Positions 1,662 to 36,110 of a stretch of DNA of 64,000 bases are shown one piece after another. Under the pieces are notes generated by a model that did no database searches, was not told the DNA's origin, and worked only from the letters and a program-made list of their open reading frames with translations. Made by a program: the position numbers and the translations under genes. The DNA comes from Bugula neritina (lineage: Eukaryota; Animalia; Bryozoa), in NCBI GenBank assembly GCA_964035545.1, contig OZ037768.1, positions 4,248,741 through 4,312,740 of the forward strand, in the 5' to 3' direction. How positions within the stretch are numbered: position 1 is the stretch's first letter; each line of letters begins with the position of its first letter.

Positions 1662-2141
1662 GCTTTTAGATTTAGACAACTAAAAACATAAAAGTGAAAA
1701 CTAAAACGAAGGAATGCACGTCAATTTCATACAATTGTCATCAAGAGCATGACATCGCTTATGGGGGCAGACATATTAAAAATACTCTTGAATATGTAAA
1801 AATATTCTTTAAAATAGTTGTTTTTTTATTATAATTTTTTTTTATGTTAAAAATTTTTTAAACAAATTTTTCAAACATAACTGTACATGTTTTACAATAT
1901 ATTATCACTGAGATTATAATATTTTAATTATACACGCGCGAGCGTAAAACAAATATAAATTTTATTATCGTATTATTAAATTGAATTCGCTAACGAGAAT
2001 AATAATCTTGAATAATTCTGCTTTTTATCAGTAATTGTTAATATCAATATACATATGTACTTATACTATGATATAAAAAATAATTTATTTGATTCAATAT
2101 ACTAAAAATCATAGATAATCATAATGATAATCTTATTCTTA

Positions 2142-2412
2142 TGTAGTAAGTTATGTAACTACTATGCGTGGGTTCCTAGCTTGTAATTATGTCTATTTAT
2201 CTACACCAATAAAGTATTTAGGTAAAAGTTTCCAAGTTTATTTACTACTAATTATATAAAAGATACAGCACGTACACAGCTTAGAGATTACATCTTCGCT
2301 TAGTTAGCACGCTCTCTCTACTGCAAAACTGCTACTAACTGAGGCCTATCACGTGACGCACTTGGATAGGCTGAAGGAATACGGGGGACGCGCGCATTAC
2401 GTCCTTACTACA
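2142..2412 (-). repeat. 3' LTR (271 bp)
   Basis: Begins TGTAGTAAG and ends CTTACTACA (perfect 9-bp terminal inverted repeat, TG...CA). Identical by eye to 9450-9720. Minus strand has TATATAA followed by AATAAA. Confidence 0.97.
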
Positions 2413-2424
2413 CCGCCCCCCCCC
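2413..2424 (-). promoter_or_regulatory. Polypurine tract (plus-strand primer)
   Basis: Minus strand GGGGGGGGGCGG directly abuts the 3' LTR. Confidence 0.9.
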
Positions 2425-2768
2425 AGCAGAAAGCCCTACTTTCTGATAACACAGATACAATAAATTCGAACATAAAATGTTATAAAACTATATAAAAAAA
2501 CCGAGAGAGCGTGTGGCACATAAGAGAAAAACATGGTTATGTACAGTAATAAGAAACATATACATATATAAAAAAATATAACAGTAAATACACAATGGCA
2601 CCGGCGGGAGGCACTTATAAGAGATAGTTTGTAGAGGTAGGGCTGTATACTGGTAGGTTACTATATTGTTACACTGAGTAATTGTTTGTGAGCACCGGCG
2701 TGAGAAGGGTCTGGAATGGGGCACCACCTGCTGTACCATCACGGATAGGGAGAGGAGGGACATCATCT

Positions 2769-3857
2769 TCAAGCACTTCCTTTCATTCGGGCTACAGAGG
2801 CAGAGAGGGCCCGGAGTTCTGATGCGGCGGCAGAGATTCTCGGTGTCAGTCTTTGCACCTCTTTCTCTAATTCTCGTATCCGCTCTTCCGCCTCGCCTAG
2901 ATTCCTGGCAGGGGCAGAGTGTCGGTTGGGGGATGAAGATGGCCAACGCCGTTTACGAGAAGGCCTTGGGGAGATAGGGGGGGAGGGACGCCATCGCTGT
3001 GGTATATCGATGCGTCGTAACACGACCCTTGGTATGGAGTCGGGGTGGGGCACTGTGCGTGCGGGGGGTGAGGAACGGGATACGCGTGGTTTCCTATATC
3101 CGGGTGGTTTAGGGCAGGGTCCCTGTGTGATGGTCCTGGGTGCGGGGAACTCCTGACGCAGCCGTTCATATCGAACTGGGTCTGATATGAACGGTCGGAT
3201 GAGATTAAGGAATTGTGGAAAGGAGGGCTCGTCGACTTCGAACAGGTGTCCAATATGGCATCCCATAGTTCGCTGGTGACGGAGGATGTAGTCCCTGTGG
3301 TAACTATATTCACCACAGGGACAAAAGGTGGTGAAATAATGTTGGGGAATATGAACTCGAAGTCTTCGTGGGGTAGTGAAGTGAAGCTGGCATAAACGGC
3401 AGGTGGTGCATTGGTCGTCTCCCTTGTGCTCTCGTATCAGTGTTTCTGTATCTGTTGTAACCCAGCATGATTGTTGTAGGAGTGCCTCCGGAAGAGTAGT
3501 GGGAACGGGTTCCTCGTTCCAAGCCATTTCTAGTGACGGCATGTCACCAGAGAGAGGAGAGAGAGCGGTATCTAAAAGAGCAGAATTACTGTTAGATCGA
3601 ATATGATCTTTACACCGTAATTCTGATGACAACCGACTGTTACTAGTCTGGGAGTCATACATCTTTTCAGATAGCACTCGAGGGACTGAGTCGTGTCGTG
3701 TAGACTGACAGAGAGACATAGTGTCAAGCTCCAGATCTAGTAGATCGTCGGCCATCTTTATGTTCTCGTCGCCTTTCACGTAAGACTCAGTCCCCAGTAG
3801 TTGTGATTCAATCAAGGCGATTAAATCAGAACTGACTGATGGTAGACTGGTTTCCAT
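2769..3857 (-). CDS. Retrotransposon extra ORF (ORF2): two zinc fingers, basic/Pro-rich region, C-terminal coiled coil
   Basis: 362-aa ORF downstream of pol, same strand. CRLC-x12-H-x3-H with the canonical F and L, then CPC-x12-H-x5-C/H (3401-3255). RPSRKRRW basic patch. LGEAEERIRELEKEVQRL...ELRALSASVARM heptad pattern. Confidence 0.8.
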   Translation of the reverse strand: METSLPSVSSDLIALIESQLLGTESYVKGDENIKMADDLLDLELDTMSLCQSTRHDSVPRVLSEKMYDSQTSNSRLSSELRCKDHIRSNSNSALLDTALSPLSGDMPSLEMAWNEEPVPTTLPEALLQQSCWVTTDTETLIREHKGDDQCTTCRLCQLHFTTPRRLRVHIPQHYFTTFCPCGEYSYHRDYILRHQRTMGCHIGHLFEVDEPSFPQFLNLIRPFISDPVRYERLRQEFPAPRTITQGPCPKPPGYRKPRVSRSSPPARTVPHPDSIPRVVLRRIDIPQRWRPSPPISPRPSRKRRWPSSSPNRHSAPARNLGEAEERIRELEKEVQRLTPRISAAASELRALSASVARMKGSA

Positions 3858-3922
3858 GAGTGGAAATGTTAGCTCAGAGCAAGCTTACCTGAGAACCCGG
3901 TATTTGTAATCATACTCAGCGT

Positions 3923-6900
3923 TCAAGCTTGGATGTCCGTGGATTGAGATTGAATGCGTCTTCCCTTGACAACGTCAGCGTACGAAAAGACTGGGCAGCG
4001 TGGTTGTTGCGCACGGCTGGAACTATTTGCCCCGGGCGTAGTAGTTTTGTTTACTACTCCGCCTTCGCAAAAGTTGAGATTTCCGTGGTGTTCACAACTC
4101 CCACGCTTTGCTGCCAGTCCTTCCGTACGGCGCCCAGCTAGACTTTCATAACTGCCGTTTGTAACACGGTCACATATGTAGTCTTTAAGGTATGCCGGGG
4201 GTTGTCTAGTACGCTGTCCCCGTTCCAGGGGAGGTGACGTATCAGCTGGAGAGGGAGTTGTAGCTGTTGGTTGGGGCGGCGTACTCACTGGTGGGCTATT
4301 TTGCTCCACCTGTGGTGTTTCTGGCCCGCCGTTGGTGGTGGTGTTCCCCTCTCCGCTGTTGTCTCCAGATGGAGCCCCTCCCACAGGGGGGTTTTGCACT
4401 TCCGGACGCGGATGCGGAACCGGAAGTGGTGGGGGTAGACTTGGTACTGGGGGCGGTGGGCGCACTTCCGTTGGTGGGAGTGGCGTCTCCTGCCTCACCA
4501 AGTCCTCTCCCCACGGCACGACCACTTCGTACTCTGGTCCATGCCGTTGCCGCCCACGCGTTACTGTCTGCCTCCTGGGCTCCAACAACGGGGGGGCTGC
4601 TCCTGCTGCTCCTGGGCTAGCCCAATACGGTTTCAAGCGGGTTTCGTTCTGGACAGAGACCTGTCCAGATCGCTCCAACTTGTACGTATGATTGGGCATA
4701 GCCTCAACTACTACGTAGGGTCCCACAAACTTAGGCTGGAGCTTAGCCGCTTGTCCTCGACGCCTACGGTAGTTGACCATCCACACCCAGTCCCCAGTTT
4801 GATAGAGAGGTGGTTCCTGAGAGTCCTCTCGCCGTACCTGCCACTGCTTCGCCCGCAGTATTTCGTGTGCGGCCCTCAGGTCCTCTATCAATTTACTGGC
4901 ATACTCGTGGATGGTATAGTCCTGCTCTGGGATGTGGTAGGTAAGGTGGTCAGGCACTCGCGTCTCTCGACCGAGCATCAGGAGGTTAGGGGTTTCCCCC
5001 GTACTGGTGTGTGGTGTACTACGGTAGGCCCGCATGACTTGCGGCAGTACCGTATCCCACTCCTCCTGACCCCGGCCGAGGAGCAGACTGCGCAGTGCAT
5101 CGCCCAACATGCGATTGTTGCGTTCCACCACCCCGTTGCCTTGAGGATGGTACGGGGTGGTCCTGCTTTGGTTTACTCCCCAGAGGCGGCAGAGGTCGCT
5201 CAACAGTTGGGACTGGAATTGAGCCCCCTGGTCCGAATGTATTTGCTCAGGTAGTCCAAGATAGCAGAATACATTTTGATCCAGCACCCTGGCCACTGTG
5301 GGGGCGGACGCATCTGGAATAGCCAGGGCATCCGCCCACCGTGTAAAGTGGTCGGTTAATACTAGGATCCAACTGTTTCCTCTGGGGGTGACGGGCATGG
5401 GTCCGACTAGGTCGATAGCTACCACCTGCCACGGCCTTCCAGCATATAGCCTACGCCGTCCCGCTTCACCAGGGAGACGGCCATGCTTGCTGGCCTGGCA
5501 GATTTCGCATTGTTTGACTCTACGCCGCACCTCACGCTCCATGCCGGGCCAGTACCACCGGAGTTGTAACTTGGAGAGCACCCTGCTCACCCCGGCGTGG
5601 GCTTGCTTGTGGGTGTCCCATACTAACTCCCGGCGTATGGCGGCTGGGCAGATCACCTTCTTCCTGCCGTACTGGTTGTTGTGAGCAGCCACTGTGATGG
5701 TCAGCAGACCATCTGGCCCGATCCGCAGGGAGTCCCAACGTTGGCAGTACGACCGTAACTCGGTGCATCCCTGCCGCAGTTGTTCTTCACTGGGTCGTCG
5801 CCCCTCCTTTTTGGCACGATATACGTCGGCTACCACTCCAGGGAGGTCCTCCTGGAGTCTTCGTAGCTCCCTAACGTTATCAGCCAAGACAGGATTGGCA
5901 CGGAGGCGTTGGATAGCCTCCGGGGGCGTAGCGGCCTTCTGTAGGAGTTGACCCTGGTCCCAGTCATACTCCGTTTCAGAGTGGTTCAGTGCTCTCAACT
6001 CGGATTTTGGAGGACCTCCGTCCCTCTTCTCGATGTTGAGGCACTGTTTACACCCCTCGTCCGGTCGCCGGCTCAGTCCATCAGCATTGCCGTGTTTCTT
6101 ACCGGGTCGGTGCTCGATCCGGTAAGAGAACTCAGCCAGGACCTCGAGCCATCGAGCGACTTGGCTGGACGGTTCTGCTCTCTTACATAACCAAATCAAG
6201 GAGGCGTGGTCAGTCGGCAAGCGGAACTTCCTGCCGTATAGATAAGGTCTGAAATGCTTCACTGACTTGATTACTGCCAGCAATTCCTTTCGGGTAGTGC
6301 AGTAATTTCGTTCAGTGGGCGAGAGAGACTTACTGTAGTAGGCCACGACTACTTCGCGGCCCTCCTGCACCTGGGACAGCACAGCGCCGACATTTTGGTC
6401 ACTGGCGTCAGTATCGAGGATGTACTCCAGGGCAGGGTCTGGATAGGCCAGGATAGGGGCCTCCAGCAGGCGGCCTTTGAGGCAGTCGAGCGCTCTCTGT
6501 TCGACGGGAGTCCACTGCCAGGTCACCCCCTTTGCGGTGAGCCGGTTTAATGGCTGCGCTACCCCCGCAAAGTCTGGTATGTATTGCCTGTAATACCCTA
6601 CCAGCCCCAGGAAAGCCCGTAGCCCGGTCAAATCCTGGGGGGTTACCCAATCTTCTATAGCTCGTACCTTTTCAGGATCCGTCGCCACACCGTGACGGCC
6701 GACGATGTGCCCCAGGTACTTCACCTCTGGCTGCAAGAGAGCGCACTTGAAGGGTTTGAGCTTCAGATTGGCGCCTCGGAGTCGATCGAAGACCTCCCGC
6801 AGACGGCTGACGTGCGTCTGAAAGTCTGGGGAGATCACGATGACGTCGTCGAGGTATACTAGCAGTGTCTTCCAGTGGAGTCCACTGAGGACCTGTTCCA

Positions 6901-9382
6901 TGAGCCGCTGGAACGTGGCGGGGGCAGAAGTCAGTCCGAAGGGGAGGACTTTCCACTTCCATAAGCCGTCCCGCGTGATGAACGCCGCCTTCTCCTGGGC
7001 GTCTGGGCTGAGGGGGACCTGCCAATAGCCGCTCAACAAGTCTAGCGTACTGAAGTACTTGCTGCCGGCTAAGGCGTCCAGAGATTCGTCGATCCTGGGT
7101 AAGGGGTAGGCGTCCTGTATGGTCACGCTATTGAGCTTGCGATAATCCACACAGAACCGCCAACTGCCGTCTTTCTTTCGGACCAGAACGACCGGTGAAC
7201 TCCACGCACTATGTGCTGGCTCGATGAGGCCGCGGTCCAAAAGATCCCGGACTTGTTGGCTGACCTCCTTTTCCTTCTCGGGTCCCAGCCTCCTAGTGGG
7301 CTGCCGAATAGGGGTAGTCCCTGCAGCCAGCGGTATCTCATGACGGACGGCCGTGGTCAGGCCGACGTCATGGTCCCCACTGCTGAACACGTCGCTATAA
7401 TCACGTAGCAACTGAGCCATAGTCTGGCGTTCCACGTTGCCCGTGCAGCCGTTACACGCTGCCTGGTATAGCTCTTTGACGTGTGATGGGACGGTCCCCC
7501 GCCTAACTGACGGGCTCTGTTGGGGACCTTCCGTCGCAGCTCCCAGCGACAGCCCTATATCCTCCTCCTGGATGGAGTGGAAGCGACTCAGCATGGATCC
7601 TGACGGTAATTGTACCGCTTCGGAGAAGGGGTTGACACACTGCACCAAGATCTCTCCTCGGTCAGTCAGCCGGTTAAGACTGCTGGCGAGTTGGATTCTA
7701 GTGTGCGCACCTTCGACAACCCCTAGCCCCGAGAGTTGGCTATTGTTCACTCTGCAGTGAACGGTAGCCCGGGAGCGGCCGGGTATAGTACAGTTGCGTA
7801 CTACCTGCACACCTCCCGCTAGAGGACGACCGAACTTGTCGACACAGGTGAGCTCTTTGCCGCCCATTAGCATGGCTGACTTGCTAAAGTCAATATGGCA
7901 CCCGTGTCTCTTCAAGAACGGCATCCCCAGTATGGCATCTTCCTCCAGTGGGCTGATGACGAAGGTTTCCTGAATGGCCTGGTCGCGGACGCGCCCAGCC
8001 AATTCTATGATACCGTAGAAAGGAATCCGTGACCCGTCAGCTAGGGTGCCCGGTTCCCCGGTATAGGGAGCTAAGGCTCCCCTCTCCTTGAGAGGGAGGG
8101 TGTCGAAGACCCGACGGCTGAGGAGATTAGTGGTACACCCGGAGTCTAGCAGGAAGGTGACAGCTTTACCGGCCACCTTCCCTGGCAAGAAGTAGCTGCC
8201 TCCGTGAGGTTGTACCCGTACTCCCCCAGCGTGCTCGGTCTCGGCCGAACGGGGCTGTGCCCGTTTGTTCCGCGGTTTGCGGGGCCGGTGAAAGTTTCCT
8301 TGCGGGGAGGCGTTCTGATCCTCCCCGATGCCCTGAGGGGCCTCGCTGGTCTGTTCCATTACTGGTAACGGACTGAAGCGGTTGGTGAGAGGCAAAGAGA
8401 AGGGGTCTCGTGGTCGACCCGGTTGGCTGGTTCGGCGAGGTGTTTGCCATTGACGGGGGGTGTGTTGCTGGGCCCGTACGGGCTCCTGGCGACATCCACC
8501 CCGTTTTCCTCTCTGTGTGTGCCCGCGGAGCTCTGGGGGTCTCCGGGGAGGTTGTGGTTTCTGCTGCCGTTTGAATCGTGGGCCGCTCAGGTGGCGGTGC
8601 CCCTGGTTGCCGCTTTCCCAGCGTCGCATCATAGGTCTGGGGGGTTTTGCTGCCGTCCTCTTACTCTTCCTTGAGTGGTTGTATGTTATCGTCGCCACCA
8701 ATTGTCCCAGTCTAGTCATCAAGCGGCTTATCTCCATCTCTATGGGGGGTTTAGTGGTCGCGGCAGCCGTGTGGACCGGATGGTCTGGTTCCCTAGAGGT
8801 CTGGGGAGTGATCTCTTCCGTCTTATAGAGTCGCTCGGCTCCAGCGTAGGCCTTGTTCTCCTGGATTGCAGCCTCGATTGTGGTCACTCCCTTGGCTTGT
8901 AACTGGTGGTGGAAGTCCAAAGAGTTGAGAGACTGTACAAAGGCTTCGAATGTGTAGTGCCGTCTGTGTGTTTCTGGCAGATCGCTATACGCGGTCCGTG
9001 CCAGTCTCTGCACCAGAGTGGCGTGGTCAGAAAGCGGTGTACATGTCTTGCGGAGTAATCCTTGCAGCCTGGACTTGGCGACGGCAACGGGCATGCCAAA
9101 ACGGGCCCGCAGTGTAGCAATGATCCCGTTTATGCTAGGCTTCCACCCGTACGGCTTGGCTTCTCCCGTCAGTGCCATCCGCAGTTTTGTAAGGGCTACT
9201 CTGGGCGGCCATCTTGTAATGGCTGCAGCTTCACGGAATTCTTGAACGAATTGTTCAATATCCTCGCGGCCTGTGAACACGGGAACCTCCAACGTGTTCC
9301 TATATACCTCCTCTCCAGCTCCGAGAGGGCCTATAATAATGTTCTGCTCACCTCCTTCCATTGAAGTTACTCCCTCGTCCAT
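3923..9382 (-). CDS. Gag-Pol polyprotein (capsid, aspartic protease, RT, RNase H, integrase), 1819 aa, uninterrupted
   Basis: Capsid-like VPVFTGREDIEQFVQEF; protease FLLDSG; RT WRFCVDYRKLN, LPFGL, YLDDV; RNase H LDTDAS, ELLAV; integrase H-x3-H...CEIC, IDLVGP, SDQGAQF, VERNNR; GPY motif PKFVGPY. Confidence 0.98.
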   Translation of the reverse strand: MDEGVTSMEGGEQNIIIGPLGAGEEVYRNTLEVPVFTGREDIEQFVQEFREAAAITRWPPRVALTKLRMALTGEAKPYGWKPSINGIIATLRARFGMPVAVAKSRLQGLLRKTCTPLSDHATLVQRLARTAYSDLPETHRRHYTFEAFVQSLNSLDFHHQLQAKGVTTIEAAIQENKAYAGAERLYKTEEITPQTSREPDHPVHTAAATTKPPIEMEISRLMTRLGQLVATITYNHSRKSKRTAAKPPRPMMRRWESGNQGHRHLSGPRFKRQQKPQPPRRPPELRGHTQRGKRGGCRQEPVRAQQHTPRQWQTPRRTSQPGRPRDPFSLPLTNRFSPLPVMEQTSEAPQGIGEDQNASPQGNFHRPRKPRNKRAQPRSAETEHAGGVRVQPHGGSYFLPGKVAGKAVTFLLDSGCTTNLLSRRVFDTLPLKERGALAPYTGEPGTLADGSRIPFYGIIELAGRVRDQAIQETFVISPLEEDAILGMPFLKRHGCHIDFSKSAMLMGGKELTCVDKFGRPLAGGVQVVRNCTIPGRSRATVHCRVNNSQLSGLGVVEGAHTRIQLASSLNRLTDRGEILVQCVNPFSEAVQLPSGSMLSRFHSIQEEDIGLSLGAATEGPQQSPSVRRGTVPSHVKELYQAACNGCTGNVERQTMAQLLRDYSDVFSSGDHDVGLTTAVRHEIPLAAGTTPIRQPTRRLGPEKEKEVSQQVRDLLDRGLIEPAHSAWSSPVVLVRKKDGSWRFCVDYRKLNSVTIQDAYPLPRIDESLDALAGSKYFSTLDLLSGYWQVPLSPDAQEKAAFITRDGLWKWKVLPFGLTSAPATFQRLMEQVLSGLHWKTLLVYLDDVIVISPDFQTHVSRLREVFDRLRGANLKLKPFKCALLQPEVKYLGHIVGRHGVATDPEKVRAIEDWVTPQDLTGLRAFLGLVGYYRQYIPDFAGVAQPLNRLTAKGVTWQWTPVEQRALDCLKGRLLEAPILAYPDPALEYILDTDASDQNVGAVLSQVQEGREVVVAYYSKSLSPTERNYCTTRKELLAVIKSVKHFRPYLYGRKFRLPTDHASLIWLCKRAEPSSQVARWLEVLAEFSYRIEHRPGKKHGNADGLSRRPDEGCKQCLNIEKRDGGPPKSELRALNHSETEYDWDQGQLLQKAATPPEAIQRLRANPVLADNVRELRRLQEDLPGVVADVYRAKKEGRRPSEEQLRQGCTELRSYCQRWDSLRIGPDGLLTITVAAHNNQYGRKKVICPAAIRRELVWDTHKQAHAGVSRVLSKLQLRWYWPGMEREVRRRVKQCEICQASKHGRLPGEAGRRRLYAGRPWQVVAIDLVGPMPVTPRGNSWILVLTDHFTRWADALAIPDASAPTVARVLDQNVFCYLGLPEQIHSDQGAQFQSQLLSDLCRLWGVNQSRTTPYHPQGNGVVERNNRMLGDALRSLLLGRGQEEWDTVLPQVMRAYRSTPHTSTGETPNLLMLGRETRVPDHLTYHIPEQDYTIHEYASKLIEDLRAAHEILRAKQWQVRREDSQEPPLYQTGDWVWMVNYRRRRGQAAKLQPKFVGPYVVVEAMPNHTYKLERSGQVSVQNETRLKPYWASPGAAGAAPPLLEPRRQTVTRGRQRHGPEYEVVVPWGEDLVRQETPLPPTEVRPPPPVPSLPPPLPVPHPRPEVQNPPVGGAPSGDNSGEGNTTTNGGPETPQVEQNSPPVSTPPQPTATTPSPADTSPPLERGQRTRQPPAYLKDYICDRVTNGSYESLAGRRTEGLAAKRGSCEHHGNLNFCEGGVVNKTTTPGANSSSRAQQPRCPVFSYADVVKGRRIQSQSTDIQA

Positions 9383-9430
9383 GATGATGATGTTCTAATA
9401 CTTCTCATTGTTCTCATACAGTAGCTAGAA

Positions 9431-9448
9431 ATCCCACTGCTGCCACCA
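9431..9448 (-). promoter_or_regulatory. Primer binding site, probably tRNA-Leu
   Basis: Minus strand TGGTGGCAGCAGTGGGAT, 1 nt inside the 5' LTR. Complementary to ATCCCACYGCTGCCACCA, the 3' end I recall for eukaryotic tRNA-Leu(AAG/UAG). Confidence 0.85.
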
Positions 9449-9449
9449 C

Positions 9450-9720
9450 TGTAGTAAGTTATGTAACTACTATGCGTGGGTTCCTAGCTTGTAATTATGT
9501 CTATTTATCTACACCAATAAAGTATTTAGGTAAAAGTTTCCAAGTTTATTTACTACTAATTATATAAAAGATACAGCACGTACACAGCTTAGAGATTACA
9601 TCTTCGCTTAGTTAGCACGCTCTCTCTACTGCAAAACTGCTACTAACTGAGGCCTATCACGTGACGCACTTGGATAGGCTGAAGGAATACGGGGGACGCG
9701 CGCATTACGTCCTTACTACA
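9450..9720 (-). repeat. 5' LTR (271 bp)
   Basis: Direct repeat of 2142-2412; PBS on the inner side, TSD CTTA on the outer side. Confidence 0.97.
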
Positions 9721-10030
9721 CTTATCGTTATTTTATACTTATAGTTATTACTTATAGTTATTGAGTTATACTTATACTTATACTTATAGTTTAACTTTAA
9801 AACTGAAGTTAAGACTTAATCTGTTAATTATTAAATTTAAGTTAATGTTAATGTTATACCTAAAGACTATAGTTATACTTATATTAATACTTAATCTTAC
9901 AGTTATTCTAATACTTAAACTTTAACTAATAATATTACTAATAACTTATACTTAAAGTTAAACTGATAGTAATACTAATTCTATTACTTATACTTAATCT
10001 TATACTTATAGTTATACTTATACTTATAGT
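9721..10030. repeat. AT-rich hexamer-based low-complexity tract (CTTATA/GTTATA) upstream of MND1
   Basis: Repeated TTATACTTATAG variants; a short similar stretch at ~2110-2141 lies on the other side of the Gypsy insertion. Confidence 0.8.
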
Positions 10031-10550
10031 CATTGAAGTCATTGTGCTAGCATTTAAATTAGACAGTTTACTGTTAGTGTTGCTCGTAGTCACTGTAAAA
10101 GGTCAAAGTGTGACTTTCTTTGAGAATTTAGGTAATTGATAAATGCACTTTCTAGCTATCACTAAATTTTGGACATAGTAATAGGCAGTAAGTATTTCGT
10201 ATACATATACGTAAAGACTGGGCCTAATAATATAGCTAGGCATTAAAAACTCTCGTTCATTCAAAACTATCTTTTTTAGTTTTCTTGGAGTTTTCCTACT
10301 CTTGATCTTAGTTTCACATTTTTGTCAATACTCACCAAGTAATTTAAATATAATAGAATAGCCATATTTGGTGATCGGATAGCACCTGATTGCTAACTTC
10401 AATGATGCACTTGTTGAACTTGTATCTTCTGCTTTCTTATTATGAGCTACTTTATAAATCGAGCCGTATTGTGTTTAATTTTTAGACAGAAGAAGCTCCA
10501 TGTGTTATAAACTTTCACTTCAAACTTGATGGGAACAAGGTCAATACAAC

Positions 10551-13500
10551 ATGGTTTGTCTATAATAATAATATATCACATCATACAGTAGCTTTCTTGT
10601 ACATCAGAAATTTATACATCAACCTTTTTTTTTAATTGTAACATCAGTTCTGTAGAGTTAAAACTTGTATGAGTATGTGGTTTTTACAGTTTTTAAAATC
10701 GAATATAGTTTTCAACATTAGCAATGTTGTTCAATTATAGAGATTAAAAATACTTTAAAACTGTTGAAGTTGTCAACCTCGTTGTGGATATGAGCACTGA
10801 ATTTAGAAGTTTAAATGCATTGAAAAAAGTTGATTTCAGGATTATATTAATAATGTCTAACTATGAATTGCTAATATGTAGCTAGATTTTGGCCATCACT
10901 TCATAGCAGTATGAAAACATCAAATGAAAATGAAATGAAAACTCAATGCTCTTATGTTTTTAGTCTAAGAGGAAAGGATTAAGCGTGGAAGAAAAGCGAA
11001 CAAGAATGATGGACTTTTTCTATGAAAAGGTATTTGCTGCATTTTTGTTTATTATTCAACGTGAAAAATTGAACAACCGATTTTGTATATCTGTTTTTTG
11101 AGAACTAAAATGATTAATGTAGAGCTTTAAAAGGTTTCATCATATATTGTGAAGAAGGAATAGTTTAATGCAACTTCTAGTTGATCAGCTAGAAAAAATA
11201 ACTCTACACTGTATAAAAGTAAACATGAGTTTTCTGAAATGTAGAGTTATTTTCTCTTGTTATAATTTTGGCTAAACTGCATACAATCATTTTACTAAAA
11301 ATACTTAATACTAAAAAACATAATTTTTAGTGGAGCTAATTATTCCTAATCATAGATAATTAAATTAATAATGTTATAAATAATTTTAATTCACAAATAG
11401 TTAAAATTTATGCCATTGTATTTTTATATATTTCTTATAACATTTTTTTAAAGTTAACACTAGTTGATTTCCTGCAATATTATTCAGATCTTTGATTTAC
11501 ACCCAGATTTAATTTCAAAATGTTACTGTTTGAAATTGCCATTTGTTTTATAATGTTATAAAACACAAAATGCTTGCGCACTGTCATATAAAAAGACAAT
11601 TTACTATTTAGTACGTGTTGATATCATACTTTACTGTCAGTATTAGTAGTTATCTCTCCTTTGCTTAAAAGATTATTACCACGGATTGAATTCAGCACAT
11701 TTTTTAAGTTTTCAGTCTGTATGTGATTATGTATCAAGTTAAGTGGGCTTGGCTATACAGGTTTTCTTTTCACTATTGGTAGTTGTCTTTCCTTATTATA
11801 TCTACCTAATCATTAAAAGCTCATCATTGTTGGTAGATATATTTAATAAACTTCATTGAATTGTCATCAAAAACCTGTTACTAGTACCTTCTATACTTCC
11901 TGGTAACTGATTGCCTGGGGAAGTTGCTGGTATATCCGTGGGACTACCCCAGCAATATGTATGCACTTAGTTATAATTATAAGACATTCTAGAACAAACC
12001 AGTTCATAATATTGCACAGCTTATCAACACTTTGAAGTGTGAACTGAATCAGGAAAAACCTTTCTAGAAAGTTCTCGATGGTCAGTTTGAAAAAATTATT
12101 GTGTATGGCCAATTGTGTCAAGCTAGATCTATTGTTGGAATTCCCTAACAATACATCCCAATGCTTATCATATTTTGGGAAATTACAGTGTAATTAGAGT
12201 CTTCTGCATCATGTTACCTGCTAAGAATAAAATACAGTCTAAAGTCTGTCACAGTGTTGTTAATATGATGACCATCTAATAAGCACTGTAAACTCTTAAT
12301 GCTTGCAGAAAGACTTTTTCCAGTTAAAAGAACTGGAAAAGTTATGCCAGAAGGAAAAGGGCATTACATCAATGAGTGTGAAAGACATTCTCACCAGTCT
12401 AGTTGACGATGGGATGGTGGACACAGATAAAATTGGGACCAGTGTTTACTTCTGGGCTTTCCCTGGTAAAGCCAGGCAAAAGGTATTTGAAAATCAATAT
12501 CTCAGTTAGCATATTTTGTGGCCTGCATTGTACGTTCTCTGTAACACATATACACAGCACACTCTCACTAGTAACTAACGGCAAACCATGGCACTGGCAT
12601 TCTAATCTCCAATATAGAATAATTGGTTAGTAGGTTATAGTAGTGGACTAGATGGCCTACTGAGAGTGATATGTCCTAATGGTATGTTTACCAAGCTAAG
12701 TAAGGCCCACGATTAGCACTAAACGAATCTTTTCCTGCTAAAACATGAAATTTTCTATACTATTATTTGCCGCACAAAGTAGTATGCTATTTGATTACAG
12801 CATCAAATGAAATGAGCTGTAATTACAATGCATTAATTTATAAAAAGAAATTGAACGTAATTTTTAGTTATAATGAGGATATTGAAATCTCCCAAATCGT
12901 TTGCTCAATTATTTACCAGTGTATTAATTGCTGCAAGCTATCCTATCATCATGTGCAGTCTGAAATTCCTTAGCATTGTGATTGTATACTTCCTCAATCT
13001 GTGACACAGTATGACATCTTCTAAATGACAAATTATGCTTAGTGATTAGGCAAATTTTTACCACAAAACCTCTTTTACATATATACCTGCTTTATATGTA
13101 AAAATGTTCATCATTTTCAATATCTGGTGTAAAACTTGTTCATTTATGTGTCCCTCTCACTTTTTGTTTCTCTGATTATTTACTTATGTAAATCTATATC
13201 TTAAGGTTGCTGGTGCAAAGAGAAGTTTATTTCAGAGTTCACTGTTTGCAATGTTTTTTATTGCAGAGCCAAAAAAGACTTAATGATCTCACATCTAAAC
13301 AAAATGAATTGACAGCTAAAAAGCAGAAGCTGGTTGAATTGATAGAGGAAGAGTCCAAGGGTAAAGAACCCTGGTAAGAGATGTATAGTTGTGCTGGTAG
13401 TGTGTCATTGTGGAGTTTTCTTTGTACTTTCAATCAGTTTGACTAACTGTGTAAAATTTTAGTGAAGAAAGAGACAGAGTTCTTGAGTTATTAGCCCAAA

Positions 13501-20374: not shown

Positions 20375-20890
20375 TATTTATATTAGTATTATAGTAATAC
20401 TAATACTATTAGTATTACTATTAATATTAGTAATACTAATACTCTAATAGTAATGCTATTAGTATTACTAATAGTAATACTAATAGTGACTAATACTTAT
20501 ACTATTACTAATAGTAATACTAGTATTACTATTAGTATTAATATTACTATTACTATGTAACTATTAGTATTAGTAAATGTAATACTAAGACTTGCAAGTT
20601 ATAATCATAATGTCAATGATAATCAGAATTAAGTATCAACTTTAGACTTAGTAACTGTAAGGATGATCATAACTACATATATCACATTCAATAATCATTA
20701 TGATTATCACTTAACAGTTATCAGTATGAGTATCACTATCATGATAGTATAAGTATTACTATTACTATTAGTATTAGTAATACTAATAGTAATAAACATA
20801 GTAATACCAATAGTAACTGTAAGAGTAAGACTAAGTATAATACTAATACTAATAGTAATACTAATACTAATAGTAATACTTAATAACAAA
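20375..20890. repeat. AT-rich (TAA/TAG/TAC)-based tract upstream of the Bfr1-like gene
   Basis: Dense ATTACT/AGTAAT/ACTAAT repeats. Confidence 0.85.
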
Positions 20891-27539: not shown

Positions 27540-28120
27540 TTATATTCAATTTCGTATTGCCATAACTATGACACTGACTACCACCTTAAGTATAACTATT
27601 ACTATAAATTATTATTATTGCAATTATTAATATCTATATAAATTATGACTATGACCATGAGCATGATCCATTAAATTTACTATTATATTTATATAATTAA
27701 AATATAATACTACTAGCACTATTGCTACTGCTGCTGCTATTAATACTACTGCTACTATTACTACTTCTAGCATTAGTAGTAGTACTACTACTACTACTAC
27801 TAGTACTACTACTACTACTACTGCTGCTATTACTAGTACTACTAGTAGTACTAGTAATACTATTATTATTAAATTGAATATTCACCATTTTAATCTAGTA
27901 TTACTATTAGTATTACTTGAACTTATCTAGTAGTAGTTCTACTTACTCTTACAGTCAAGTTACAGTTACTTTTAGTCTTACTCTTAGAATTGGTAATACT
28001 ATTACTATTAGTATTACTAATACTAATAGTAATAGTAATACTAATAGACTTATGGTAATATTAATACTAATAGTAATACTAATAGTAATACTAATACTAA
28101 TAGTAATAATCTTATAATTC
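27540..28120. repeat. Composite (TAC)n/(TAA)n and hexamer tract between the divergent PYCR and GPCR genes
   Basis: Runs of TACTACTAC, TAATACTAATAG and related units. Confidence 0.85.
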
Positions 28121-30469
28121 AAATTATAAATAATAAATTAAAGTATAATGAATTGAAACTTTCAGCAATTTGAGCCCTTATTATCATTATCTGAATTGTA
28201 AAATCAATGTTTATGATAAACGTGGTTAGTAAGCAAAGACGCTATGCTTACTGTAAACTTAAAGAAAAAAACACCTGAATAAATATTAAATTTTGCAACA
28301 CAAAGCCACCCAGAGTACTACTACGTTTAAAGCTGGTGAAATTAAAGAGAATGAGAAACCTAACTATAGCAAAAGAAACTGATGAAATGTAGAACAAAAC
28401 TGGTATGCAGGTAAAGTAGTTCTTAAATTAGTCAGAAAAATAATTGCGTGCATGTTTGTTACTTGCGCACCTCTTTCTTTCTTTTAACAGCTGGTAACCA
28501 TGGTTTCTGCAAGTCATGAATTTTTTAGTTATTTTATATAATTTTCTTATTTAAAAGTATTATTACAAACAGTTAATTTATATACAATTATTTTTATGTG
28601 CTAGTTTTGATAGAAATGTTGCAAGTCGGTAAGGTTGCGCAGAAATACCATAGAGAAGCATCAACATGGCCGTAATACCCACCATTCAAATGGTAGAGTT
28701 TTACTTTTAGTATGCGAGTAAATAACGCGACCTTGTTTTCATTTTGCTCAGTAACAGCGTCAGTCTTTTGATTTAAATAAGATACAAACTGTTTAATTTG
28801 CATATTCTTGTAATTATTATTCTAACAGCTTTACTAGACTTGAACTAAAATGCAATCAGCAATGTAGATGGTTGATTGATTAAAAATGAATCAGATTGAG
28901 ATTACCAATATCACCAACTTAATATATCAAATTTGATGTTGAAGTTATTTTAAAACTTAAACAAAGTAAGTAAATTTTGATGTTCAAGAATAACTTTATC
29001 AATATCAGCTTGTGTTGATATTTATGGTATGTCAGTATGAATAATTATTTTATAACTATAGCATTATGATTAACTAGCAGTAAAACCAACAGTAACTAAC
29101 TAAAGTTGTAGCTAATCACAAATCAGTCTCCCTGTTACTATTAGGCTGTTAGTGTGAGTATGAATAAATATTATTATATAATCATTTATTTTAAATTTCT
29201 CACAGATAGTTAAACTTGATGATGTAACCAATGGCTATAAAGTTGAACAATTTACAGTATCACTATCAGTACTATATCTATATAGTATATACTTATGGCT
29301 TAACTTTAACTATACAAATATATTAGTGACTAATATAATTAGAAATATAAATTTAAATGTTTATTTTAAAATTTAATGCAATGTTATACTATTATTCGTA
29401 TTATTTTTATAATCATATTGAATCCTATTTTTATCTCACAAATAGTTTTGGGTTTTAGTATAAAACATGTTATTATAATATCAAGTCCAATTTTAAATAA
29501 TATAACTAAAAATGATTTCAATTAGATTTATGAAAATATAAAAGTTTAACACAATTAACTTATCAAAATTAGTGCTAACTGTAGCAATCTTATGTGGCTA
29601 AAAGTTTTCAGTTTTATTTCAAGGAGCTAAAATAATATAATAATGATTTTAGATAAAATTGTTTCTTTTGCAAATTAATAATTGTAGTTAATTTGGTTCA
29701 AGTGATAAAACAAAACTTATATTTATTAAAATTATTGCAAATTTTCTGCTGCTGAGTTTAAAAATAAATGATTACTCTTGATAGTTGGAAAGTATAAAAA
29801 TCATGTTGGTTTTATCTGAAAGAGCATAATGACTATCGTTTGATTATTTAAAAAAAAAGTATAGCCATTCATAGACAACATACTGCATGTCACACTAACT
29901 TAAATGCAAAAAATAATGCACTATTAAATATATCTAGTAATAGGCTTGTGTTTGACATTTAAATAACATGTCAATTCTTTCATGTATTTTTATAATATAT
30001 CTTAAAATTTAATTTTCACGTATTTTATGCGTATTATTTTAATCCTAATTTTTTATTTTTAGTAAATATCATGTCTTTAGATGCAAGTCAATCTCTTCTT
30101 GCATGAGTCAATTTTTAGGCAGCTGAAAGTTACAAAATGTAGATTAATTGTTGAAAAGATTTAAGGTTCTTAGTTCAACTGTGTTGAAGAAAATTTTATC
30201 CTACTTAGGGTTCCAGGAAAATTTTACTGCATGCATTTGTTTTAGGTTTCATTATATTTCATAGTGACAGCTGATCAGATTTACTAATTGTATAATGTAA
30301 CACCAGTTACACTGCAATAATCAATAATAGTGAAAGGGTATTGTTCAATATCAACAAATCACTTGAATACTTTGGCCCACATACCGCATGGTTTTCATCT
30401 ATTTATTAATAATAATTGTTTTAGATACAAATGGAACAGCTGATCTGCTATCACTAATGACATACAACG

Positions 30470-33400
30470 ATGTCTTCAACTACTGTGAGACCTGGGCTGG
30501 TAGAAAGGACATCTACACTTGCCATCATAACACTCTTAGCGTTTCTAGGAAATTTACTGCTCCTTGTAACTGTCGTGCAAAGCTCTGCTTTACGACAAAC
30601 ACATTTCAACAAACACATCATCAATGTTGCCATATTGAATTTGCTGACTTCAATCATATGTCTGCCTATGGTTATTGGTTATTCAGTCACTAGTCAATGG
30701 GATTATGGGGAACTAGTTGCGTGTAAGCTATTTGCCCACCTGCTCACGTCTGCAACAATATGTATGTGTCTTAGTATACTTGCCATGAACTTTGACCGTC
30801 TAATAGCAGTCAGTAATCCAGACTTGTATGCTACTCGTATGAACTCTGTCAAAACAGCATTTCTGATAATTCTTGTCTGGTTAGTAGCCATATTGTTTCC
30901 TTTGCCACTGAGTTTAGGTGTTATACCAACTAGTCCACATCCTGCCAGATATGTTTGTACAATATCAGCTCTCAGTTCTCTTAAATTCCTCGTGCCAATG
31001 TATACTATCTGCTTCGGATTTCCTGCCGTGCTGAATATATTAATTTTTATATATGTAACAAAGGAAGCTATGAGTGAAAAGGAGGCCGAGAGTAGAGGCT
31101 CAGTCAATCGGCCAAATTCAACTATTAGACTTTGGCCTGAAGTTCAGACGGCAGGTGTGGTTTTTATTCTTTTTCTTCTCTGGGCAATTTCCGAACTGCC
31201 ATACATTATACTCTCATCTATAGAACAGTATATTACGTCGGCTGAAGTTGATCAGGAATTCAATTATTCACCTGACCTTGACACTACGTTTATGTGGCTC
31301 AAATTTTGCAATACCTTCGCTTTACCTCTTGTAATTTTTAAATGGAGAAAAGACATTTGGCAAAAGTTCAAGGATCTGATATTTTGCCGAAAAAGTAACA
31401 GCGTGGTGGATGCATCTCCCAGACCTGAAAAGCATCCGACGAGCAAACAAAAACCTAAAACTCAAGTTTCAGTAAATCAAGCAAGTAGTACTCCTAAATT
31501 CCAGGCTTCTTTTCCAATACCTACAATAAAAGCTTCCAAGGATGGTCTGCATGTCCATGGCAATATAGATGACGACGATGAGGATTGTGGGATATTTTAT
31601 GCCAACCTTGATATCACTGGTCAGCTAGATCAATTACATAACCCTGCAGTGGATGATAGTTCTTGTGCTCAAGGTAAGTTGATTAATTATATAAATGGAG
31701 TAGTTTTATGAGCAGCTCTGAGTTGGGGGTGACTGAGTGCGGTAGTTGGGAATTTTCGAGTTTGGAGTTGGAATATAAGTTGGAACTTGAGACTCCAAAC
31801 TCAAGAATCCCCAACTGTTGCACTCAGTCACCCCCAACTTGAAGCTGCTTATAAATTGATTCGTATAAATAAGCGCTTTTAACTATAGCCATGGTTTCTG
31901 CTAATAACTAATCGAACTATGCCCGATCAACTGACTGAAAATTAGTCTACAATTTGTTCGAATGATATGAGATAAAAGTAATGAGTAATAATTAAATAGT
32001 AAAGTCTGTCCTATTAGTCATTCATTCACTTGGTTAGTTGCTGTAGATGTAGATATGGGTGACACAAGTGATTACGAGACAGATCCATACTCTCAGTCTG
32101 ATCCCATATCAGTAAACCACCACTCTAGAACTAACTCAGCTGCTGCAGCTGGCAAAGAGTTGCGATCTAAAGCTAACAGCATATCCGTTCTTTCCCAAGA
32201 TTCAGGTATGTATTATGTTATCCAACATACAGGAACATTTGCAAATACTTTTGTGCTGTTTTTGATTAACTTTTGTTTTATTAGCTACAATATTAAAAAT
32301 ATTTTAATTAGCTTAATTTTCTTTTGTAAGATCCTTATAAATCCTGGTTTGTGGGCTAACGAATTCTCATTAAAATACATAGTGCATGCCTACAGTTGCA
32401 GCTTTTAGCAAGAAGCAAAATACTGAATAGGACACTTCAAAATTAAAAAAGTTTTTATTTTTTTTACATGTTCTTCTTTCTTTCACAATACAAAGTTTTG
32501 ACGGCATTATATGTTTCTACATAAAATATGACAGGATTTGGTGCTCACAACATTAGGTTTTAAATCGCATATAATGTTCATAGACAGGCTTCCTCAGGTC
32601 TCTAAACATGTTATGCTGGATAGAAAAAAGATTTGAGGCTACACATTCTTTCATCTTTTTGATTTACTGATAAGCAGAGTTAAGCACCTTTTGATATTCT
32701 TAAAAATTAATCAAATTTGTTCTGCCATGTGTGTTTAAAGTTTATAATTGTAAGAAATGGAACAATAAAGTTAGTAGTTGAACTCACTGACACTATAAAC
32801 ACACTCATTCTGGGCACTCCGGGAGCTATTGCAGCACATTAGCACATTAACTTGCTTGAACAAAATTGATTTAACTTGATTTTATAAGGAAATAACTGTT
32901 GAATAAATAACTAATTATTATATTTGGCTTGTCAGTTGAAACAAATTGAAAATCAATTTTTATAAACATAATTTTAGTTCTGACAATTCAAATACCTATA
33001 ATGAAAGAATCTACCTTTGTGACAAACAATGCTACTTCAGTTTTATACGCTGCAATCTACAATATTATGTTTTGTATCATTCACTGGTGAAAAACAATGG
33101 CGGCTCTGCATTGCAATAAAATACAGCATTTTTCACAGTGATGCTTGTATATCAAGAAAAAGACATTACTAGTGTAAGGTTTTTTCTTTTTTTTATATAT
33201 GAAAGGGGATCATTATTTGAGCAAAAAAGTGTACGTTATAGAGAAATGAAATTCGAACATCTTTCAACAATGTTTTCACCCGGTTTCTTTTTAAATAATT
33301 AATATTCCAACTTGGTTTACCCAAGTAGCTGTTTTGTTATCATGAGATGAAAACCATTATCAAAAAATGTTTTTTAAAAATATTGTTTTATTGCATTGTG

Positions 33401-36110
33401 GACAGACCTTTAAAATTTGGATATTTTTATTGCAAAGAAAACATTAATGAAATATAAAGTAATAATGTATAAAAATTTCTAAGAAGCCCCAAAACCTTTC
33501 ACAATTACATTGTTTGTGCAATGTACATGCTTGTCACGTTTCCCCTGTGCAATATTACCAATAAAACTTCTTTTCACAGACACAGTATTGTGTGTTAAAC
33601 CGTAGCTGAATACGCAATGACTGAATGAATGCAATCATGACTGCAGGGCATGGGCCTTGCTGTCTATTATCCCTATAGGATAATACGACAGCAAACAAGT
33701 TTAATGGCCAAGCCAATATTATTGATTTGAATAGTCCTAACTCTGTTAAAATAATTGGAATTTAATGTTATTGTATTAGTGCAAGTTGATAAATATAGAA
33801 ACATGTACGTTACTTCAAACAGCTCATTCACAGCTTGTACACTGGCCAGTGTCTTACCAAAAAGAGGCATAAATATATTGTTGATAGCTGTATATCATGA
33901 TATTAAATTGTCTGGTGAAGCAGAATATTATAAATTAACTTTGACTATCAGGTCCTTTGTAACAGTTCTAGTTTGTATAGTTTGTAATTATACATTATAA
34001 TTACATATAAAGCACGCTAATATTTAAACACCATCAAAATTTGAATTGATGAAGTTTACTCTATGCTTTGATTTAAAGTTTGTAGAGATAACAACTCCAA
34101 CCTTTTATCTAAATTAACCCAACTACTTGTACAATGTAGCTTCTATTTCATGGAAAAATTTAGCTAGCCTGTTGCTAATTTTTTATGTAATTTATTTTTG
34201 CAGGAAATGGGTCAGCTTCAAGTTCTGTAAAAAAGAAGCGGCGTAAAAAACGAGCAATCGCCGATATCAACATCGAAAATGATCGAATTGTTGCAGCAAG
34301 TAGCCTAAGTATTAACCAGTCACTATCAACAAGTAACGCGGAGCTTGACCTCCCCCCAACTAGTCTAGACAGCACCGTATCTGAAACTAAATCTAACAGC
34401 AATAATAACACCGAACTAATACACAATGCTGAAGTTATCCAGACATTAGATTCTGACATATCCAAACCAACTAAACATAAAAAGAAAAAGAAGAAGAAAA
34501 ATAAGAATATAATTGATGCAGAAACTAACACAACTCAAAGACTAGGTATGGAGCTGACAGAAAGGAAGAAACCCCCTCCTAGACTCTCCCCTATAGACCC
34601 AGGGGTTATCCAGAAGTCGATGGGTAGGATGGCCACCCCTCCTTTGAGAGGTAAAGTCCCACACAACAATGACCTGAGCATTCTACCTCCAACTGGACTC
34701 TCACAGGACAGGCGGAGAAAGACTCACTCAGCTGATGATGCAGCAGGTGGGTGACCAAACATCCTGGGAGTTTATAGCGTTGTGTGCGGGCTCAAGTCAG
34801 TGGCTAAACATGGAAATTCGGGTTATAACTTTCACTATTTCTCTCAGAGTTGGTGAAAGTTTAAATCTGAACGACATGTGAATCCTAAGCCTACTAATGT
34901 GTAGACTCAGAACCTACTAATGTGTAGACTAAGAACCTACTAATGTGTAGACTAAGAACCTACTAATGTGTAGACTAAGAACCTACTAATGTGTAGACTA
35001 AGAACCTACTAATGTGTAGACTCAGAGCCTACTAATGTGTAGACTAAGAACCTACTAATGTGTAGACTAAGAACCTACTAATGTGTAGACTAAGAACCTA
35101 CTAATGTGTAGACTAAGAACCTACTAATGTGTAGACTCAGAGCCTACTAATGTGTAAACTAGGAACTGTTTATGTTCCAAGTAACACTGACTTACAGTTG
35201 TTTAGGTCTACATACTCTGTATGCTATAATATATTTAGGTCTACATACTCTGTATGCTATAAGATATCTAGGTCTACATACTCTGTATGCTATAAGATAT
35301 TTAGGTCTACATATTCTGTATGCTATAAGATATTTAGGTCTACATACTCTGTATGCTATAAGATATCTAGGTCTACATACTCTGTATGCTATAATATATT
35401 TAGATCTACATACGCTGTATGCTATAAGATATTTAGGTCTACATACTCTGTATGCTATAAGATATTTAGATCTACATACTCTGTATGCTATAAGATATTT
35501 AGGTCTATATAACTATAAGATGTTTGCTAGGTGACATTTTCTTGATTAATAGGCTGGTTTATTTATAAACATCTTTAGCAATTCTTACCTCAAATCGGCT
35601 TTAGCAGCGTCTCTCCTTGCGCAAGTTCGTATTGTCATCACACATCTGATTTATTACCAACACATTTTATGCATGGAATGAAATTTATCTGGCAAACATT
35701 ATTTATTATATCTAAGATGATGTATTATTTTGGCCTTTTACGTACGTATATGTGTGCACATACCACATAGTTTTATATAAACTTAAATTAAAACTAACAT
35801 GCCTGCCTAATGATGTTTAAATGGTATCAAGTAAAACTTATTTTTTATTCTTTTATGTTGAAATTTGCTAAAAATAAATGCATACATGTATACTCTTTAT
35901 GGTAGTTCATGAAACTTTGACATCATTTCAGAACATGTTCCTTCTGCTGAATCTGATGCTTCAAAATCAACCAATCGAAAGAAGAAATCTTCACGACCAA
36001 GAAACCAATCGGGGGATTCCGAGAAACCTTTAATGGGTTCGAATGCGTCATCGGAGTTGCACTCCCTTACCACTGAGACATATCGAGACTCGTATATCTG
36101 GTTGGTGTGA
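30470..36110 (+). CDS. Orphan rhodopsin-family (class A) GPCR with long C-terminal tail, about 690-700 aa; exons 30470-31673, ~32047-32205, 34204-34746, 35932-36110
   Basis: Seven hydrophobic segments with GN (TM1), W...C (ECL1/TM3), DRL (DRY site), W...P (TM4), FGFP (TM5), LPY (TM6). Three downstream exons join in phase 1 and end at ...YIWLV*. Confidence 0.85.
31705..31855. repeat. Foldback hairpin / MITE-like palindrome in GPCR intron 1
   Basis: Ungapped 64-bp arms (31705-31768 and 31792-31855), 54/64 complementary, 23-nt loop. Confidence 0.9.
34890..35165. repeat. Minisatellite, 12 x 23 bp (CCTACTAATGTGTAGACTAAGAA)
   Basis: Units start every 23 bp from 34890 to 35143; no spacers. Confidence 0.97.
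35201..35507. repeat. Minisatellite, 9 full units plus a partial x 33 bp (TTTAGGTCTACATACTCTGTATGCTATAAGATA)
   Basis: Units start every 33 bp from 35201; internal CATAC-TCT-GTATG hairpin. Confidence 0.97.

Follow-up and report, generated by a model that had tools for sequence, protein, structure and literature searches.

The window (the whole 64-kb stretch of Bugula neritina DNA analysed here) contains a complete Ty3/Gypsy LTR retrotransposon on its minus strand, at positions 2142–9720 (Table 1). The element has the LTRs, primer-binding site, polypurine tract (PPT), target-site duplication, and pol order (PR-RT-RH-IN) of the Ty3/Gypsy group. The primer-binding site begins with TGG, and is presumably of the tRNA-Leu type. 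The identity of the two LTRs, together with the 4-bp duplication and the completeness of the parts, indicates a young and intact insertion. An additional gene, ORF2, occupies the env slot.

The gag part (window 8200–9382) has no CCHC knuckle and no Pfam match at E 1. The Chromo family is absent among the 12 Pfam matches on gag-pol (E 1), and with no C-terminal chromodomain on its integrase the element is not a chromovirus by that criterion. No second copy was found within the 64-kb window. In contigs from three runs of one study, summed contig depth over ORF2 and pol in run X1 was approximately 5,600–11,400, compared to 110–200 over the flanks; summed depth is not equivalent to copy number, and the window itself may come from the sample of run X1. 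The depth over ORF2 and pol suggests that the element is multi-copy. It sits at the border of an AT-rich array of hexamers, a kind of repeat that is common in the window (9733–10028, 20391–20885, and 27708–28108).

Table 1. Parts of the Gypsy element and of the ORF2 protein, in window coordinates.
Feature	Position	Strand	Remarks
Target-site duplication	2138..2141; other copy 9721-9724	+	CTTA (4 bp), flanks the LTRs
5' LTR	9450..9720	-	271 nt, TG...CA; identical to 3' LTR
Primer-binding site	9430..9448	-	begins TGG, adjoins 5' LTR
Single gag-pol ORF	3923..9394 (start about 9382-9394)	-	order PR-RT-RH-IN
ORF2, accessory gene in env slot	2769..3857	-	362 aa
ORF2 residues 1-127	3477..3857	-	acidic, Ser-rich; predicted disorder except helix 8-21
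ORF2 residues 128-240	3138..3476	-	folded two-zinc domain
ORF2 PxVxL motif, residues 276-280	3018..3032	-	followed by two Arg and Ile
ORF2 basic NLS-like patch, residues 298-305	2943..2966	-
ORF2 C-terminal heptad helix, residues 315-361	2775..2915	-
Polypurine tract (PPT)	2413..2424	-	G-rich, precedes 3' LTR
3' LTR	2142..2412	-	271 nt

An earlier note on this DNA, made from the letters alone, had reported an intact sense reading frame between pol and the PPT. ORF2 begins 65 nt past the pol stop (3923) in a different frame, contains no internal stop, and ends approximately 340 nt upstream of the PPT. Its frame is closed by its own stop at 3885–3887, just upstream of the start. Because this frame is closed upstream and differs from that of pol, translation of ORF2 requires its own RNA or re-initiation, and the two stops mean that no frameshift can fuse pol to ORF2 in the window copy. 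Donor-like splice words occur at 9419, 9351, 3915, and 3888; our own acceptor pattern gave no site within 3830–4000. Expression from a subgenomic, probably spliced, RNA would fit this layout.

For the translation start, we lean to Met1 over an internal Met at 106–111. The internal Met is found in 11/11 full-length relatives, and the six differences listed in codons 62–104 are all non-synonymous. From the first 30 residues onward, 53 of 121 close relatives can be aligned, and codons 1–105 stayed open in 192 of 1000 neutral runs. DNA similarity over codons 1–105 (window 3540–3850) is retained in divergent runs, and a DNA- or RNA-level signal or a second start may lie within these codons. The RNA of codons 1–106 folds strongly (z -5.97). 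A special RNA element here is not supported, as much of pol folds strongly too, Rfam gave 0 matches, and pairs were kept in 5/7 listed variants against 66% expected. Along the sense RNA over 3540–6340 (minus strand), six of seven 400-nt windows had z values of -4 to -6 against dinucleotide shuffles, and no discrete RNA element stood out.

Most of what the earlier note had read from the protein was confirmed. Residues 1–130 are acidic and Ser-rich as claimed, with 22 D/E, 9 K/R, and 30 S/T, and the NLS-like patch is present as RKRRW at residues 301–305. The linker past the folded domain is rich in Arg, Ser, and Pro. A leucine-zipper-like C terminus had also been proposed; residues 315–361 do form an amphipathic heptad helix (pLDDT of about 90), and its core positions are a mixture of L/I/V/A, which makes it a coiled coil and not a strict leucine zipper. 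With 30 close relatives as input, a first fold model was of poor quality (pLDDT 46.8) and served solely for helices and disorder. Hydropathy over 19 residues peaks at 0.93, which leaves no transmembrane helix, again in line with the note. Pfam has no family for ORF2 (best E 0.1) and no env family matches at E 1; the transmembrane-anchored glycoprotein of an errantivirus was not found.

The central part of ORF2, at residues 153–200, contains two zinc fingers with the spacing that had been claimed. Finger 1 (C153-x2-C156-x3-F-x5-L-x2-H169-x3-H173) is a classical C2H2 finger in both spacing and fold, and finger 2 reads C179-x-C181-x12-H194-x5-C200. Both sit centrally within a larger folded domain (approximately residues 128–240), which is made up of a Trp-capped helix, the C2H2 finger, the C-x-C...H...C/H finger, an EVD strand, and two helices, and is the region common to the distant relatives (21–47% identity). 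C153, C156, H169, H173, C179, and C181 are invariant in 65/65 rows, which bears out the expected conservation of Cys and His. In an alignment of 87 rows, 94% retain H194 and 62% have Cys as the eighth ligand; W132, G182, R188, V208, and D209 are conserved as well. AlphaFold2, a check that the note had proposed, returned one compact domain from an alignment of diverse relatives, with high confidence (pLDDT 94.4, pTM 0.85).

By the helix numbering of C2H2 fingers, base-facing position +3 of finger 1 is Arg in 68% of the 87 rows. Position +6 is Val in the window copy and the linker between the fingers is short, unlike typical base-reading arrays. The closest solved chains are mostly DNA-bound tandem C2H2 proteins (Kaiso, ZNF524, ZBTB20, SALL4, and CTCF). 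These matches are weak (Z 3.1–3.4, rmsd 2.3–3.9 Å, 50–57 residues), involve the paired fingers alone, and reveal no function; no structure match reached Z of at least 5. The two ORF2 fingers overlay on the tandem pairs of Kaiso, ZBTB20, SALL4, and CTCF (PDB 5vmu, 9kh2, 7y3k, and 5yeg) at 2.3–2.7 Å over 50–57 residues. ORF2 differs from them in its short linker, the C-x-C form of finger 2, and extra N- and C-terminal elements, for which these chains have no counterpart. Foldseek against the PDB and viral models gave no match at E 0.001, an absence that does not prove a new fold. NCBIfam holds 0 families for the window domain, the top ESM Atlas clusters are unnamed and the remainder generic C2H2, and the scores of relatives on PF00096/PF13894 are weak and with few exceptions fall below the cut-off. 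The two-zinc domain is uncatalogued: Pfam has no family for it, and among solved folds only its paired fingers have a counterpart. The surroundings of the domain recur in distant relatives as well: an acidic region lies upstream in 35/43, a basic region downstream in 43/55, and a terminal heptad helix is found in 29/40, compared to 1/40 in a control stretch by our own simple score.

Relatives of ORF2 are numerous. A word search recovered 74 (51–99% identity) and a profile search 118. With an exhaustive search, 177 cluster representatives reached E ≤0.001, and 150 of them are among the matches listed. The relatives reach down to approximately 25% identity and share the two-zinc domain of about 110 residues. 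Eleven full-length relatives with 53–71% identity are all open throughout, and 10/11 retain all eight zinc ligands; they were recovered as open frames and are a biased sample, as many shorter relatives look decayed. In neutral simulations, 0/500 runs were free of stops at 70% protein identity, and likewise 0/500 at 60%. Against one contig of run X2 (with a 1-nt gap at 3156), 21 of the 33 differences counted, from a table giving 40 of its 148 rows, fall at third codon positions (p 0.0004). The dN/dS over codons 250–299 against this contig is approximately 0.17, a rough value from 50 codons only, and is not near the value of 1 that the note had named; no outcome that the note had set down as refuting its claim was seen. 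ORF2 is under purifying selection. Among the metagenome, viral, and prokaryote genome contigs scanned, no locus of a relative was confirmed.

Six distant relatives are joined in frame to parts of a Gypsy pol (P0258, P0259, P0214, P0231, P0208, and P0244), which indicates that the module travels with the element lineage. In P0258 and P0259, a single frame takes in RNase H or protease, then integrase, and then the complete module; their pols are 52–53% identical to that of the window, and the P0259 domain is 30% identical. A pol-tail motif precedes the module in P0214 and P0231, and a Gypsy protease is joined to it in P0208 and P0244. P0208, P0252, and P0244 carry the protease in frame with the zinc module, no RT or integrase family being detected in them, and are probably internally deleted or non-autonomous derivatives that kept the accessory module. 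With selection on ORF2, pol-linked relatives, and no glycoprotein features, the claim of a non-envelope accessory gene belonging to the element lineage was upheld.

The same domain is found in annotated bryozoan genes. The relatives with a named organism (4 of the 30 clusters looked up) all come from Watersipora or Bugula, both of which are bryozoans. P0254 and P0255 (Bugula, adjacent locus tags) and P0213 (Watersipora) combine the zinc domain with a common unnamed N-terminal domain. P0125 (Watersipora) and P0150 contain two copies of the zinc domain and a C-terminal coil; P0125 is an annotated bryozoan gene that has both an HP1-type motif and a coil. In a domain tree of 38 rows, from which 49 of the 87 cores were left out and in which several branches are long, pol-linked rows stand on both sides of the best-supported split. 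A single clade of the five domain copies from named bryozoan genes was rejected (p-AU 0.026). This pattern would fit repeated domestication of the domain by bryozoan hosts; it may also stem from a domain that arose in a host and was later captured, or from element ORFs annotated in error as the named genes.

Past the domain the linker is variable, with the exception of a PxVxL motif that the earlier note did not mention, as it did not mention the in-frame pol fusions or the annotated bryozoan genes. Strict PxVxL is present in 50 of the 61 close relatives (of 122 rows) that cover residues 276–280. Of 70 alternate-residue triplets in the linker, P276/V278/L280 is the best kept (0.82 against a median of 0.32), and none of the three DNA differences listed in codons 276, 277, and 280 changes the amino acid. 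PxVxL, LxVxL, and CxVxL bind the HP1 chromoshadow dimer, according to the available text of PMC7465937. Among the distant relatives, [PLC]xVxL occurs within 130 residues of the domain in 17/65, compared to 8.5 in shuffles (2/2000), and is absent from the tested flanks in 48/65. An extended HP1a consensus, taken from the accessible part of PMC12526061, matches 14/65 against 5.3 expected (1/2000 shuffles); these matches are not independent, as six lie in one subclade and one is a Watersipora gene adjoining it. The same consensus had 0 matches in four control linkers from pol/gag. For strict PxVxL, the distant relatives show no enrichment (6 against 4.2 expected; 225/1000 shuffles). Six motif patterns were tried in total, three of them picked after the alignment had been viewed.

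The window copy passes 13 of the 14 positions of the extended consensus (-7 to +6), which is derived from Drosophila, and fails at -4. All 14 positions are passed by 1/61 close relatives, and by 43 without the -4 rule; 44 of the 61 have two basic residues where the consensus expects three to six. In common with HP1 chromoshadow ligands and the HP1a Access Codes, as far as these are set out in the text available from PMC7465937 and PMC12526061, ORF2 has its conserved PxVxL core within a linker that is basic and disordered, position +4 being basic and +5 hydrophobic. It differs from the known ligands in being encoded by a retrotransposon and in failing at -4, and its docking is predicted. A short motif of this type matches more than half of a proteome, according to the same part of PMC12526061. 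A PDB sequence search with the motif stretch gave chance matches only. From the alignments, PxVxL is beyond doubt a conserved linear motif, and we infer HP1 as its partner.

Taken as a parts list, an acidic region, paired fingers, an HP1-type motif, a basic patch, and a coiled coil would best be read as a chromatin adaptor. Our tentative preference, held at somewhat less than even confidence, is that ORF2 is a conserved Gypsy accessory gene for a nuclear chromatin adaptor, which sits on the element's own DNA and keeps the provirus transcribed. In such a mechanism, the basic patch would bring about nuclear import, the two-zinc domain would bind DNA, presumably that of the element itself, and PxVxL would dock on HP1. 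The coiled coil could pair or oligomerise ORF2, and the acidic N terminus may have an activating role. The outcome would be anti-silencing, that is, a provirus that is transcribed in silent chromatin. Docking on HP1 is as compatible with silencing or tethering as it is with anti-silencing, and three of the five readings considered require contact with HP1.

Tethering of integration is an unlikely alternative, in which the module is packaged with integrase or fused to it and guides the cDNA to HP1-marked chromatin. The chromodomains of chromoviruses and the Sir4-binding tail of Ty5 are precedents. Integrase and module share a frame in P0258 and P0259, the pol-tail motif precedes the module in P0214 and P0231, the evidence on the HP1-type motif applies equally to this reading, and the window copy lies at the edge of a hexamer array. 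However, window ORF2 is separate from pol and no frameshift can join the two. A frame that runs open across the join does not have to yield a fused product; the 3' ORF of Cer1 is used through splicing (PMC10309623, in the text available). A single insertion site next to a common kind of array shows no preference.

A role on RNA is likewise improbable, namely that of a Rev- or CERV-like factor that would use its fingers and basic linker to bind structured genomic RNA and help it to be exported from the nucleus or packaged. As described in the accessible part of PMC10309623, CERV of Cer1 (a C. elegans Ty3/Gypsy element) is a nuclear, non-env protein from the same slot, acts in gRNA export, and combines a region rich in Cys with a candidate NLS and what may be a leucine zipper. 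The lack of a CCHC knuckle in Gag, the Arg/Ser/Pro-rich linker, and sense RNA that folds above shuffles over much of 3540–6340 would suit such a factor. However, CERV is described there as having a loop of the C4 type, a domain resembling G proteins, and N-terminal exons in common with gag, and it is set apart by this description from ORF2 with its C2H2 and C-x-C...H...C/H domain, PxVxL, and C-terminal coil. Neither the C4 Cys loop M domain nor the G-like domain was found in ORF2, the 362 aa of which are filled by other parts, and the ligand pattern is unlike that of the C4 loop. No discrete RNA element was identified in the element and Rfam gave 0 matches. The PxVxL motif is left unaccounted for by an RNA-binding role.

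Self-restraint, with the protein sitting on element DNA and bringing in HP1 to shut it down as a brake on copy number, is markedly less probable. It would place in one chain what the KRAB-zinc-finger and KAP1 pair achieves with two proteins. Zinc fingers, an HP1-type motif, and a coiled coil are the usual layout of a corepressor, and the presence of the domain in annotated bryozoan genes, with motif and coil in P0125, is what would be expected if hosts had kept a repressor. Against this, the element is young, as its identical LTRs indicate, and looks multi-copy, and the acidic N-terminal region of the 35/43 distant relatives is a better fit to activation. That ORF2 is a host exon captured recently, of no use to the element, is hardly credible and largely refuted: the domain in annotated bryozoan genes, three of them with a common N-terminal domain, makes a host donor possible, but ORF2 is under purifying selection, the best-supported split has pol-linked rows on either side, with pols only 52–53% identical to that of the window, and the named genes are rejected as one clade.

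Extra genes in the env slot are already known, and the note's account of this slot was overstated, given CERV as a nuclear, non-env accessory protein (PMC10309623) and other non-env ORF3s (PMC5408684), as described in the available text of both. The non-env ORF3s of bdelloid rotifers (PMC5408684, text as available) are likewise family-specific sense ORFs past pol in LTR elements of an invertebrate, and are typically expressed from spliced messages. They are GDSL, DEDDy, CC, and TM types, that is, enzymes, coiled-coil or membrane proteins, and the words "zinc" and "C2H2" are absent from PMC5408684. Errantivirus env takes the same slot in most errantiviruses, as seen in the accessible portion of PMC13524379, whereas ORF2 has no TM helix or glycoprotein features; the env elements of bryozoans have the order GAG-ENV-POL with a gB-type env according to the same portion, and "zinc finger" is absent from its main text. 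Plant elements carry conserved additional ORFs in the stretch that separates pol from the 3' LTR, such as gene23 of Grande, and some of the products are nuclear and proposed regulators (PMC7264820, available part). These ORFs are antisense, or env-like when sense, and "zinc" is absent from PMC7264820.

No C2H2-type, HP1-motif protein in the env slot is described in the available text of the comparison papers on extra ORFs. The word "zinc" is absent from the text of PMC8220671, PMC8556966, and PMC6238403, and the accessible parts of PMC13228809 and PMC6431247 contain nothing relevant to the family. As the note had supposed, no description of the ORF2 family was found in full-text literature searches, and the element may be listed in repeat databases (Repbase, GyDB, Dfam) or supplements without annotation. 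The observation made in the earlier note is confirmed, its interpretation of ORF2 is partly supported, and ORF2 is a real accessory gene that represents a new protein family in a known arrangement.

To our knowledge, an accessory protein of known function has been described for few animal LTR retrotransposons. ORF2 provides a direct test case for whether animal retrotransposons encode tools that engage heterochromatin, be it for escape, targeting, or self-control. Moreover, an uncatalogued and confidently folded domain that recurs in host genes is a case for the exchange of regulatory domains between elements and hosts. A broader proposal is that an old lineage of animal Gypsy elements has its own HP1-docking zinc-finger chromatin factor, separate or fused to integrase, which serves in counter-silencing or heterochromatin targeting, and that bryozoan hosts have taken up its domain more than once. 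We regard this as possible and rather doubtful.

Elsewhere in the window, a single long ORF at 30461–31711 (+) encodes a rhodopsin-family 7TM receptor (PF00001, E 2.8e-25), and an ORF at 62570–63346 (+) has a weak match to calcineurin-like phosphoesterases (E 0.0023, short of the cut-off). At 34890–35511 lie two neighbouring, well-kept tandem arrays, a 23-mer repeated 12 times and a 33-mer repeated 9.4 times.
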